Of a DNA stretch of 64,000 bases, positions 5,844-32,261 are shown in pieces; the first letter of the stretch is position 1, and the number at the start of each line of letters is the position of its first letter. The stretch spans positions 192,001 to 256,000 of the IMG/VR virus record IMGVR_UViG_2030936005_000025; one strand, given 5' to 3'. A model generated the notes under the pieces. That model ran no database searches and was not told the DNA's origin. It saw only the letters and a program-made list of their open reading frames with translations. This DNA is from a virus. Lineage: Duplodnaviria > Caudoviricetes. The translations under genes and the position numbers were made by a program.

Positions 5844-6218
5844 TTACCCCTGTTTTGCTGGACCCACCAATTTGTCCATCACCTCTTTGATGATGATTTC
5901 AATTTCGATCGGATCCGGCACTTCGGTTAATTTATCTTTAGCAAGCTTGCGCTGCAGATTCACCATCACGGCATTGAAGATGGTGTCGAGGTCAATGTCC
6001 ATGACCTCCTCGTACTTGAGTACCTCGTGATACACACGCAGGTAATCCAGGTGGATGATTTCTTTCGCACGAGTTTTACTGCCAGCAAACTTAGCTTTAC
6101 GGGACATAGATCTTTCCTTCTTAGGAGGTAAATTGGCACGATGCCAAGAATAACGAGCGAGACCGGCTATTAGACCGCCGACCAAGAATAAAAATAGGAT
6201 CCAGTATACAACGGACAT
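5844..6218 (-). CDS. hypothetical membrane-anchored protein
   Basis: 124 aa; N-terminal TM helix then a basic stretch. Confidence 0.7.
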   Translation of the reverse strand: MSVVYWILFLFLVGGLIAGLARYSWHRANLPPKKERSMSRKAKFAGSKTRAKEIIHLDYLRVYHEVLKYEEVMDIDLDTIFNAVMVNLQRKLAKDKLTEVPDPIEIEIIIKEVMDKLVGPAKQG

Positions 6219-6815
6219 TTAGACCTCAAAGAGTTTATCCATCTTTACTTCATTACCATTTTCGTCAGTGACTTTGTGAATCAAGCCATTCAAGATTGAG
6301 CCACGATAAGGGTGTTGAATGCCACCTTTGGAGATCAATACTTCAAAGTCAGCATCATAGGTCTTAGTGTCACGATAGTTGTACAGCACTTTGTAGCCGT
6401 AGCAGTAATCCAAATTGTTACCACTTTCACTACAATAAAATGACAAGGTAGATTTGATAAGCTCTGCAGCCTCAAATCCCAGTGCTGTATCAATGACGCG
6501 CGCAATCAGATTATGGTGACTACTGATACGGTCATTGAGCTTGAAGTAAAAGTCGTGAGGACGTAACTCAGCAATGATATAATCAGCAATCCCTTCTTTA
6601 GGACGGGTAAACACAAACTGACCATCCTGCTCAATACCAAAGATATGAAGACGGATGGTACGATTAATAATAAATTCAATAGCAATAATGTCCAGACCTC
6701 TGGCTCCTTGATTACGAAGCTTGGCTGGATTAACGATATAACTCTTTACCGATTGAACACTAAAGTGATCGTTCAGTAAATCTGTGAAATAAGTACGTAC
6801 GGTTTCAATATTCAT
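6219..6815 (-). CDS. hypothetical protein
   Basis: 198 aa; first gene after the promoter motif at 6861. Confidence 0.75.
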   Translation of the reverse strand: MNIETVRTYFTDLLNDHFSVQSVKSYIVNPAKLRNQGARGLDIIAIEFIINRTIRLHIFGIEQDGQFVFTRPKEGIADYIIAELRPHDFYFKLNDRISSHHNLIARVIDTALGFEAAELIKSTLSFYCSESGNNLDYCYGYKVLYNYRDTKTYDADFEVLISKGGIQHPYRGSILNGLIHKVTDENGNEVKMDKLFEV

Positions 6816-6860
6816 CTTTTCAATCCTAAGGTTAAAAACTAAGTGTGGTTCTTCACTCTA

Positions 6861-6868
6861 ATAATATC
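6861..6868 (-). promoter_or_regulatory. putative phage early promoter (GATATTAT)
   Basis: Recurrent motif, minus-strand context AAATAGATATTATTAGAGTG. Confidence 0.6.
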
Positions 6869-6899: not shown

Positions 6900-7430
6900 A
6901 TGTAAGAAACGATGTCATTTTATTTTCATTTCGCTATGGGTATTTCTGAATGCCCATAATGAAGTGTGACCGCCATCGTGCTTCTTGGTAGTTTTGCCAT
7001 TCTTTATTGCTATCTACAAAGTGGGGAGGCGGCCTTCCTCCCCCTTTCCTTAAGTACATTTGATTGGGTGTATTTAAGGAAAGCATGGGGGCATGCTTTT
7101 ATTCTGTTGTAAGTCGTGGTTGTTAAAGGACCCAGAGGGTTGGTTTGACTTTTCCTCTTCCCTTTGGGTTCTTTATTTAACATTTCTCTATGTTTGTTTA
7201 TTGAGCTGACATAGAGAAGTGCGCGCCGGTACTTCTTATCCATGTTCTTGCTTCGCCAGATGGTTTGGCAGAGGGGCTTTAGGTAGCCCCTTCTTTCTAT
7301 GTGTATTTACGAGTATACATAGAAAGCGTACCTAGCTGGTATCGCCCATCCCGCTAGTTTTTCTATCGCCTTCTTTTCTAGCCGGGATTACTTAGCCCTG
7401 TGGGGAGATTTTCTACAGGGCGCTTTTCAA
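6900..7430 (+). ncRNA. candidate structured RNA or long structured leader (array of long hairpins)
   Basis: At least eight stems of 7-15 bp, e.g. 7044-7058/7069-7083, 7125-7139/7160-7174, 7293-7305/7314-7326; G-U wobbles favour the + strand. Confidence 0.45.
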
Positions 7431-10060: not shown

Positions 10061-10315
10061 ATGAAAGTTGTGATTTACGGAAAACCTGCGTGCGTGTTCT
10101 GTACTCGTGCGAAGGACTTAGTTAAGGCCAAAGGAATCGATCATGAGTATGTCGATATCATCGAAACCGGCATGGGTCGTGAAGGCCTGGAAGAAATTGT
10201 GGGAGGTCCTGTTACGACCGTTCCTCAAATCTTTGTCGATAATGTTCATATTGGTGGTTATACTGATCTGGTATCTCACCTTGTCAAGTCTGACGAATCC
10301 GAAGTAAAGGTGTAA
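10061..10315 (+). CDS. grx: glutaredoxin (NrdC/Grx-like)
   Basis: CVFC active site, TVPQIFV cis-Pro motif, HIGGYTDL. Confidence 0.92.
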   Translation: MKVVIYGKPACVFCTRAKDLVKAKGIDHEYVDIIETGMGREGLEEIVGGPVTTVPQIFVDNVHIGGYTDLVSHLVKSDESEVKV

Positions 10316-10317
10316 TT

Positions 10318-10455
10318 ATGGATTTTGATTTGGATGATCTGAACCTTGAAGGTTTGGATGAAGCTGAAGCTCGTAACAATGAGCGCCAGGAAGCGGCTGA
10401 TAAAGCTGCGGCAGCGGTTGGCGATGAAGCTGACTGCGAAGGTTGTAAAATCTAA
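10318..10455 (+). CDS. 45-aa acidic peptide ending in an RNR-alpha-like CxxC tail
   Basis: MDFDLDDLNLEGLDEAEARNNERQEAADKAAAAVGDEADCEGCKI; starts 2 nt after grx stop; absent from the ORF track. Confidence 0.7.
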   Translation: MDFDLDDLNLEGLDEAEARNNERQEAADKAAAAVGDEADCEGCKI

Positions 10456-10481: not shown

Positions 10482-10619
10482 ATGAAAAAGAAAAAGACTT
10501 CTTTGAAAGAAAAGATCCGTCGCCAGAATCAGAATGCTGAGAAGACCTTATACCTCGATGGCGCTGGTGATACTTTCACGATGACCAAAACCAAAGACGG
10601 CTATAAGTTAAACGTGTAG
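10482..10619 (+). CDS. small basic hypothetical protein (45 aa)
   Basis: MKKKKTSLKEKIRRQNQNAEKTLYLDGAGDTFTMTKTKDGYKLNV; fills the gap before the next gene; absent from the ORF track. Confidence 0.5.
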   Translation: MKKKKTSLKEKIRRQNQNAEKTLYLDGAGDTFTMTKTKDGYKLNV

Positions 10620-10681
10620 GGTAGCAATACCCTACTCCTATATTTCATCTCCAACCACTACTATGACCGAGAGAGAAGAAT

Positions 10682-30918: not shown

Positions 30919-31584
30919 TTAAGGTTCTTCTGCAGCAGCAATATATGTGTTGTCAAGATCCAGTTTCAGACCTTCACATGTATCACGTACTTTGGACATC
31001 GCCTTATCCAATTGCTTGGCGGTAAACAGCGGACTCCAGGCAATCCCTTCGACCATGTTATCTTCAGTACCCTTATCAATCACGAATGCTAAGATAGTAT
31101 CGCCAGGTAGTGAAGCGGCTTTATGTAAACCTGCCAGATAGTCATTATCACCGTTGGCTGTTGAGAATACTGGGTCTCGGTTCTCATCTGCCTCACGAAT
31201 ATCGGTTACATCTTTACCGTATTCCATGATGGAGATATCCACCTTACCTTTGGGAACGTAACCCTCATCATTGACAATCGAGTAACTGATGGCAGCTCCC
31301 TTCATACGTAAGTCACAAACAAATACAACAGCCGCAGGCTTAGTGTCTTTGCCCTTCAGTCCCACGGTATAACCAAACAGGTTTTCCTGGAACTTAAAGT
31401 TCTTAACCGTTAACTGATCAGCCATTACACCTTTGTGGAGAACTTTACCGTAGAACTTATCGGCATCTAACTGAGATTGAACTTTGGCGTTCTTGCTCAG
31501 ATCAACCTGACCATCGTCAGATTTATCACAACCGACCAACAGAAATACCACAACCAACATAATGCAGCTAAAGAGCTTTTTCAT
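30919..31584 (-). CDS. lipoprotein, member of a 5-gene exported paralog array
   Basis: Lipobox LLVG/C; two further Cys (FVCD, DTCE). Confidence 0.75.
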   Translation of the reverse strand: MKKLFSCIMLVVVFLLVGCDKSDDGQVDLSKNAKVQSQLDADKFYGKVLHKGVMADQLTVKNFKFQENLFGYTVGLKGKDTKPAAVVFVCDLRMKGAAISYSIVNDEGYVPKGKVDISIMEYGKDVTDIREADENRDPVFSTANGDNDYLAGLHKAASLPGDTILAFVIDKGTEDNMVEGIAWSPLFTAKQLDKAMSKVRDTCEGLKLDLDNTYIAAAEEP

Positions 31585-31612
31585 CTACTTATTTCCTATG
31601 AATGGACATAAC

Positions 31613-31640
31613 AACTCTACCCCCAAACGGAGGTAGAGTT
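31613..31640 (-). terminator. hairpin of the CTACTC-like family
   Basis: AACTCTACC...GGTAGAGTT. Confidence 0.55.
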
Positions 31641-31646
31641 GAGAGG

Positions 31647-32261
31647 TTATTTGTTTTGGGTAGAACAAGGATGTTGGTTCAGGGTCAGGGCCGAAGTCAT
31701 GACAACTAAATCAACAGGAATGAATACTGCTTTTGAAGATGCTTGCACTTCTTCTAAGGAGTTGGCTACCCCGAAGACAAAGTACTTGAAACCTTCTTTA
31801 GCGAGATTGTCTTTCAATTGGAATGCAGTGATCATGAAGGCATCGCCCACAGGAACCTTATCACCCTTTGAAATAATCCCGCGCCATGCAGAAGCAACAA
31901 TGACATTTGATTTGGACTTAGCCATGTTGAAATAAATCTTATTGGCTGTTGGCGGGTTCTTGCCATCCAAACTGGTTACTTCCCAGGTGAAACCATCGTG
32001 AGAGCCTGGTGTGACACACTGCATCGTTACCTTGGCATTCTGGTCAGGGAAGGTAAAGCTCAGAGGTTCAACCTCATTACTAATTGCATCCTTGACACCA
32101 ACTGCCTTAGCAACTTCAGTGTTCTTCTGGGTATCTACAGTCCCCGAAGGTCCTGATAAAATACCGATAACCAGAATTGCACCGATGACTATCATCAGCC
32201 ACTGCCACTTAGTGAGTTTCTTTTCTTTCATTTGCTCTTTCTCAGGCCACTCGCCCATCAA
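31647..32261 (-). CDS. membrane-anchored exported protein, paralog array
   Basis: N-terminal TM helix; MQCV...HPCS Cys pair. Confidence 0.7.
   Translation of the reverse strand: MMGEWPEKEQMKEKKLTKWQWLMIVIGAILVIGILSGPSGTVDTQKNTEVAKAVGVKDAISNEVEPLSFTFPDQNAKVTMQCVTPGSHDGFTWEVTSLDGKNPPTANKIYFNMAKSKSNVIVASAWRGIISKGDKVPVGDAFMITAFQLKDNLAKEGFKYFVFGVANSLEEVQASSKAVFIPVDLVVMTSALTLNQHPCSTQNK

Follow-up and report, generated by a model that had tools for sequence, protein, structure and literature searches.

A conserved 45-residue protein of a giant Erwinia-type phage ends in a free-standing look-alike of the ribonucleotide reductase redox tail

Here we describe a small operon in a 64,000-nucleotide window (positions 192001-256000) of the 264,203-bp virus record IMGVR_UViG_2030936005_000025, which CheckV rates 100% complete. 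The nearest named relative is Erwinia phage AH04 (Meadowvirus; host Erwinia billingiae), in which the same three genes are annotated as AH04_16, AH04_15 and AH04_14; a second comparison was made with a 260-kb relative, hereafter referred to as G001. The operon encodes a glutaredoxin, a 45-residue acidic protein (15 acidic and 4 basic residues) and a 45-residue basic protein, and these three small genes look like one unit (Table 1). The acidic protein ends in DEADCEGCKI, and its ATG lies 2 nt after the TAA stop of the glutaredoxin gene. A sequence-only reading had reported this ORF, its ending and its position behind grx, and every element of that observation is confirmed here. It had also stated that no nrdA lies in the window, and we find that none is present anywhere in the phage genome.

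Table 1 Features of the grx-peptide operon, in coordinates of the 64,000-nucleotide window
Position	Strand	Feature	Basis
10061..10315	+	GrxA-family glutaredoxin, 84 aa, active site CVFC	Pfam PF00462, 1.5e-16; NCBIfam NF008401, 89.7 bits (cut-off 84); AH04 orthologue annotated as a GrxA family glutaredoxin
10307..10312	+	Shine-Dalgarno AAGGTG, 5 nt before the ATG of the peptide and inside the end of grx; layout suggests coupled translation	Read directly from the sequence
10318..10455	+	Gene for the 45-aa acidic microprotein (stop codon included)	ORF list; conservation and selection in the text
10318..10356	+	N-terminal acidic and hydrophobic motif, residues 1-13 (MDFDLDDL..GL), a possible docking element	Conserved across the family as hydrophobic-x-hydrophobic ... 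L-[DE]-x-A-E
10354..10431	+	Predicted single alpha-helix, residues 13-38	AlphaFold2 on a 33-sequence alignment; pLDDT about 90 for residues 11-30
10432..10452	+	C-terminal tail DCEGCKI, predicted flexible, with Cys40 (10435-10437) and Cys43 (10444-10446)	No secondary structure by DSSP for residues 39-45; mean pLDDT about 54 for the last block
10482..10619	+	Conserved 45-aa basic ORF of unknown function, last gene of the operon	85-89% identical in AH04 and G001, always downstream of the grx/peptide pair; no Pfam match
10616..10645	+	Terminator-like hairpin with a T-rich tail, closing the unit	8-bp stem, then TCCTATATTT

The acidic ORF is a real gene. A word-indexed search returned 16 homologues, all exactly 45 aa in length and 71-100% identical, with 20 invariant columns. 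These include D39, C40, G42, C43, K44 and I45, so that the terminal cysteines, the conservation of which had been set beforehand as a test, are retained in every one of these homologues. Between this phage, AH04 and G001, dS is 1.2-1.5 but dN is only 0.13-0.15, giving a dN/dS of 0.09-0.13, and 18-20 of the 30-31 nucleotide differences per pair are at third codon positions. Many phage members of the wider family also have a GGGE linker before the tail.

The C terminus is a look-alike of the tail of the class Ia ribonucleotide reductase (RNR) alpha subunit, NrdA: two cysteines lie two to four residues apart within the last eight or so residues, preceded by an acidic run and ending in a hydrophobic residue. 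We fetched the nrdAB loci of 80 bacterial genomes using the phage NrdB as query, and in 76 of them, from Enterobacterales and Pasteurellales, the NrdA C terminus could be read. All 76 end in C-x4-CKI; 65 end SIQDDGCESGACKI (terminating in DDGCESGACKI), whereas the rest carry close variants such as CEGGACKI (Tatumella) and CAGGACKI (Pasteurellaceae). The two-residue spacing of the phage peptide, which the sequence-only reading had ascribed to T4-type tails (CxxCK[LI]), is found in uncultured phage NrdAs of IMG/VR, which end in EEDCESCKI, CESCTI, CEACAI and CDACAI; Erwinia class Ib NrdE ends in EGCVSCSL. Within the peptide family the tail takes the forms CEGCKI or CDGCKI (Meadowvirus, Wellingtonvirus, Y3, Agricanvirus and bacterial type A, see below), CGDACKI or CGDGCKI (bacterial type B and some phages), CEGGGCKI or CEGGACKI (Alexandravirus-like Erwinia phages, with CEGGACKI in pEa_SNUABM_25, and Klebsiella phage Miami), CDGGGCKI (Yersinia phage phiR1-37) and CESGACEI (Serratia phage PCH45). 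The spacing thus ranges over 2, 3 and 4 residues, as in natural NrdA tails, and some members carry the host's own loop.

This resemblance is more than chance. A DNA pattern for Cx(2-4)CKI-stop, run on three Erwiniaceae genomes (about 15 Mb) and on the phage genome, hit only NrdA and the homologue of this peptide as real ORFs, the three other hits being open frames of 15-25 aa. Profile-profile comparison of the family with NrdA tails (hhalign) aligned the last 9 columns, EaDCe--GCKI with dd-CesgACkI, at P = 0.001. However, the similarity covers only about 9-10 residues, and, as expected for so short a match, BLASTP of the peptide against the last 60 residues of NrdA gave no alignment and phmmer against PDB sequences found nothing.

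The phage has partners of NrdA, the radical-generating subunit and a reductant, but not NrdA itself. PF02867 (RNR large chain) and PF13597 (class III) are absent from the genome. By contrast, PF00268 is present: a 376-aa protein at genome positions 31068-32198, outside the window, matches the class Ia NrdB equivalog NF006576 over positions 1-376 of 376 (720.9 bits, cut-off 346), is 79% identical to Pantoea and Erwinia NrdB, and ends in DDFDNFQL, like the alpha-docking tail of host NrdB. The 716-aa ORF downstream of nrdB, which we first considered as a possible NrdA, has no RNR domain. AH04 and G001 also carry nrdB without nrdA, and in G001 the nrdB gene is in two pieces. Two phages with nrdB only had already been noted in a survey of incomplete phage RNR gene sets (Dwivedi et al. 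2013, PMC3653736), which does not mention a tail-like peptide; here the orphan NrdB comes together with a GrxA-type glutaredoxin and the tail mimic.

A tblastn search of named phages with the 45-aa peptide itself returned nothing, not even AH04, probably because of the low-complexity filter. Longer or more complex family members used as queries found the gene in 41, 17 and 64 named records; the three lists overlap, and the gene occurs in more than 100 jumbo-phage records of many genera. They include Erwinia phages of the genera Meadowvirus, Wellingtonvirus, Sasquatchvirus, Alexandravirus and Agricanvirus, together with AH06; Klebsiella phages Miami, KPN8 and FBKp24; Dickeya phages JA11 and AD1; and Serratia phage PCH45, Yersinia phage phiR1-37 and Salmonella phage SA002. 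PF02867 is absent from all 14 peptide-bearing phage genomes tested, this one included. Conversely, none of 7 NrdA-bearing large phage records carries the peptide, although these are unrelated phages and the comparison therefore says little.

The supportive company of NrdB and glutaredoxin is specific to the Meadowvirus-like phages. NrdB is confined to the three Meadowvirus-like phages, and a phage glutaredoxin was not found in Wellington, Y3, pEa_SNUABM_23, pEa_SNUABM_25 or the genome designated G002. The glutaredoxin link is therefore specific to one genus, but it is kept through a rearrangement, the order being grx then peptide in this phage and AH04, and peptide then grx in G001. Elsewhere the gene sits in dNTP-metabolism neighbourhoods: between thymidylate synthase and a MazG-like pyrophosphohydrolase in Wellington, between CMP deaminase and thymidylate synthase in Y3, and 3 kb from a thymidine kinase in Ea35-70. 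A search for a conserved neighbouring partner gene across phage genera found none other than the peptide itself.

The bacteria own the gene too. A profile search returned chromosomal proteins of two types. Type A is 43 aa in length and starts M.DDIFEFDIDAEL; most copies end in DEADCEGCKI, the same last ten residues as the phage peptide, and it occurs in Erwinia amylovora (seen on 323 contigs), Pantoea, Mixta, Izhakiella, Rouxiella, Serratia, Tatumella and Sodalis. Type B is 46 aa, is closer to the version in this phage, ends in DDDCGDACKI, and occurs in Cedecea, Enterobacter, Citrobacter, a Klebsiella species, Kluyvera and Pluralibacter. Each copy has its own -10 box, a GGAG-type Shine-Dalgarno and a terminator directly after the stop. 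The copies sit in ordinary chromosomal contexts that differ between genera, next to a DUF808-like membrane protein or after a MATE transporter, with at least three unrelated contexts and no nrd or grx genes nearby. The gene was not found in Escherichia albertii, an Escherichia species, K. pneumoniae ATCC 13883, Kosakonia, Dryocola or two Pasteurellaceae. No NrdR, Fur or LexA box was found within 5 mismatches upstream of 12 chromosomal homologues.

The family has not been described. Pfam, NCBIfam and PDB sequence searches gave no family and no structure, exhaustive phmmer against 1.8 billion representatives gave one cluster only, the ESM Atlas returned only unnamed clusters of 43-46 aa, and a search of 80-2000-aa proteins found no longer or fused form. 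The sources name the protein only as hypothetical, and full-text searches for the tail motifs and for a small phage protein acting on NrdA found nothing relevant. There is a precedent, however. In class I and many class II RNRs, a C-terminal cysteine pair on a flexible tail re-reduces the active-site disulfide and is itself reduced by thioredoxin or glutaredoxin (PMC4078304, PMC5704485). In the split class II RNR of Pseudomonas aeruginosa, a separate polypeptide, NrdJb, carries the C-terminal cysteines and mediates dithiol exchange for a catalytic subunit made from another gene (PMC4520616). NrdJb is a folded cysteine-rich domain encoded directly after nrdJa and homologous to the C terminus of unsplit NrdJ, whereas the peptide described here has only two cysteines, shows no detectable homology to NrdA beyond the last 9 or so residues, is unlinked to any catalytic subunit gene, and would have to act on the host's already complete enzyme. 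Compared with the E. coli-type NrdA tail (last ~25 residues, Cys754/Cys759), it is not the extension of any RNR catalytic barrel, its N-terminal 35 residues have no counterpart in NrdA, and in this phage it has CxxC instead of Cx4C spacing. It is thus not a member of the NrdA family, as it has no catalytic domain, nor is it NrdJb-like; it would work like, or against, the NrdA tail.

We examined whether the N-terminal motif imitates the NrdB docking tail (DD[FL]x[DN]FxL). In a composition-preserving shuffle test the likeness is significant for bacterial type A (p = 0.001-0.017) and for pEa_SNUABM_25 (p = 0.004), borderline for Miami and PCH45 (about 0.05-0.06), and not significant for the peptide of this window (p = 0.14) or for type B, Wellington, Y3, Ea35-70 and phiR1-37; hhalign gave no alignment. 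For the peptide of this window the idea is therefore unsupported.

Our preferred reading, to which we give a probability of roughly 0.45, is that the peptide is a trans-acting counterpart of the C-terminal swinging arm of NrdA, which in the enzyme re-reduces the active-site disulfide after each turnover, and is placed here beside the natural reductant of that arm. In this view it would be reduced by the phage or host glutaredoxin or thioredoxin, would deliver, or compete for, reducing equivalents at the active site of host NrdA, and in this phage would help to keep a hybrid enzyme (host alpha, phage beta) turning over during infection. The analysis establishes that the gene is real and conserved, that its tail is like that of NrdA, that NrdA is absent while NrdB and Grx are present, and that bacteria have homologues; any redox exchange, any contact with NrdA and the direction of the effect, stimulation or inhibition, are inferred from sequence alone. 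Several points weigh against this reading. There is no biochemical evidence of any kind, and most peptide-bearing genera have neither a phage glutaredoxin nor a phage NrdB. A free peptide competes poorly with a tail tethered in cis unless it docks, and no docking site is shown. In the one transcriptome that could be checked, the phiR1-37 homologue g117 is almost silent (3.9, 1.5 and 1.2, against hundreds to thousands for its neighbours; PMC4848604, Table S2), and a class II RNR could not be reconstituted in vitro from a separately expressed cysteine-rich C-terminal domain (PMC5704485). Because cells with a complete NrdA keep the gene, a purely compensatory spare tail is not the whole story, and a regulatory role is a serious alternative that fits this retention at least as well as an extra shuttle does.

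The sequence-only reading had proposed a detached tail acting in trans for a host or tail-less phage RNR, a competitor for host redoxins, or a relic of a deleted nrdA, and this interpretation is partly supported. The core idea of a free-standing NrdA-type tail beside its natural reductant is strongly supported by sequence, conservation and context, but service to a tail-less phage RNR is excluded, as none of the 14 peptide-bearing phage genomes encodes an NrdA, and so is a relic. The shuttle for host NrdA and the competitor cannot be told apart by sequence. The orphan host-like NrdB, the confinement of the glutaredoxin link to one genus and the bacterial ownership of the gene did not figure in that reading.

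The competitor is the less likely of the two. The peptide might act as a decoy that occupies glutaredoxin or thioredoxin as a pseudo-substrate, or plug the entrance to the NrdA active site, in either case slowing re-reduction of host RNR. It rests on the same tail evidence and suits a gene retained by bacteria with a complete NrdA tail; moreover, where the N terminus resembles the NrdB docking tail, a peptide that docks there would hinder beta binding. It would be analogous in logic to the small, largely disordered RNR inhibitors of yeast, which act on RNR by occupying a subunit-tail interaction, as the peptide presumably would: Sml1 is reported to block regeneration of R1 by the C-terminal CX2C tail of R1 (Zhang 2007, as cited in PMC6382339), and Hug1 is a small disordered RNR inhibitor (PMC4245953). 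There is no sequence similarity to these proteins, however, they do not themselves carry the redox cysteine pair, and our literature searches found no bacterial or phage counterpart. Phages without their own RNR also need host dNDP synthesis, this phage invests in a host-compatible NrdB and an adjacent glutaredoxin, and in other genera the gene sits among dNTP-synthesis genes.

Less likely still is a thiol-based function unrelated to RNR, in which the cysteine pair would bind a metal (Zn, Fe or Cu) as a dimer, bridge an Fe-S cluster with the glutaredoxin or carry reducing equivalents to another enzyme, the likeness to NrdA being convergence on a generic acidic redoxin-substrate motif. In its favour, only two cysteines and about 10 residues are shared with NrdA, no conserved RNR gene accompanies the peptide in most genera, no neighbour is conserved between genera, and the chromosomal copies sit in unrelated contexts with no nrd or grx genes nearby. 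Against it, the K-I terminus is nearly invariant as in host NrdA, nothing except NrdA shares this ending in the host genomes searched, and some members reproduce the host loop exactly (CESGAC in PCH45; CEGGACKI in Miami and pEa_SNUABM_25). With only two cysteines, no histidine and a variable spacing, the peptide lacks the four ligands and fixed CxxC spacing of a zinc ribbon or knuckle and better suits a flexible dithiol loop, although a metal-bridged dimer is not excluded. Finally, although the ORF is short, acidic, of low complexity and without a family model, a relic of a deleted nrdA or a chance ORF is effectively refuted by purifying selection, constant length and the occurrence of homologues in phages and as independent chromosomal genes, and a RiPP-type precursor is very unlikely, as no modifying enzyme is conserved beside it in any of four context types and the core has no conserved Ser or Thr for lanthionine chemistry.

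A more far-reaching and doubtful possibility is that the family is a native enterobacterial regulator of RNR that jumbo phages have captured repeatedly. Its N-terminal motif and helix would dock on NrdA, in some subfamilies by imitating the NrdB tail, and its cysteine pair would then enter the active site or intercept glutaredoxin or thioredoxin, setting the rate of re-reduction. It would be the first bacterial or phage counterpart of the small disordered RNR regulators known only from yeasts, and a new way for viruses without RNR to control host dNTP synthesis.

RNR is the sole de novo source of DNA precursors, and its re-reduction by the C-terminal tail is thought to limit turnover. Given its distribution, the protein probably acts on the cell's supply of DNA building blocks. 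A conserved, easily synthesised protein of 43-63 residues that copies the NrdA tail, present in the chromosomes of Erwinia, Pantoea, Serratia and some Enterobacteriaceae and in more than 100 cultured jumbo phages, including Serratia PCH45, Yersinia phiR1-37, Erwinia Ea35-70 and Klebsiella Miami, would be a new layer of control of dNTP supply. It would also explain how large phages that lack RNR still manage host dNTP synthesis and, if the peptide inhibits, it would be a natural lead for peptide inhibitors of bacterial RNR.

The glutaredoxin and the very acidic peptide are encoded in inverted gene order in two related phages, the phage studied here and its 260-kb relative G001 (table below). 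The two glutaredoxins also differ, as that of G001 has a CPYC site and an acidic C-terminal extension (...DPLDTDDLGGI), whereas that of this phage has CVFC. In this phage, AH04 and G001, the glutaredoxin–peptide pair is always followed by a strongly basic ORF of 45 residues, which starts with a run of lysines, is 85-89% identical and has no family match. This basic protein could be a partner of the acidic peptide. Gene-free stretches were apparent in the ORF list on either side of this small-gene cluster.

Coordinates of the peptide gene neighbourhood, its counterparts and the phage nrdB
Feature	Sequence	Position	Strand
Glutaredoxin and peptide genes, this phage	Window	10061-10455	
Region compared with it in G001	L004 (G001)	6001-6863	
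Basic 45-aa ORF	Window	10482-10619	+
Gene-free stretch	Window	11300-12160	
Gene-free stretch	Window	6935-7421	
Peptide family member g117	L162 (Yersinia phage phiR1-37)	3459-3614	
Orphan class Ia NrdB (outside the window)	Own genome; locus L003	31068-32198; L003:9069-10199	

In Enterobacterales, two subtypes of a chromosomal homologue of 43-46 residues are present (bacterial chromosomal loci L121-L132 and L153-L158). Each is a monocistronic unit with its own -10 box, Shine-Dalgarno sequence and terminator, and they are located in at least three different chromosomal contexts. In one copy from a MAG (P0045, Kluyvera), the second Cys is replaced by Tyr. By contrast with its neighbours, which reach values of hundreds to tens of thousands, the phiR1-37 family member g117 has expression values of only about 1-4 in published RNA-seq data (PMC4848604, Table S2), indicating either that it is barely transcribed under those conditions or that small transcripts were lost.

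Uncultured phage class Ia NrdAs (IMG/VR contigs L099-L102 and L112) have a long acidic linker and a CxxC tail (CESCKI, CESCTI, CEACAI, CDACAI and CESCAV) instead of the enterobacterial Cx4C. Both spacings therefore exist in genuine NrdA tails.

The class Ia NrdB encoded by this phage is 79% identical to Pantoea and Erwinia NrdB and has the alpha-docking tail DDFDNFQL. In G001, the nrdB match is split into two pieces about 290 nt apart (L011 and L012), which could be an intron or an insertion. No NrdA is present anywhere in the phage studied here, which implies a hybrid enzyme with host NrdA, and AH04 has the same arrangement.
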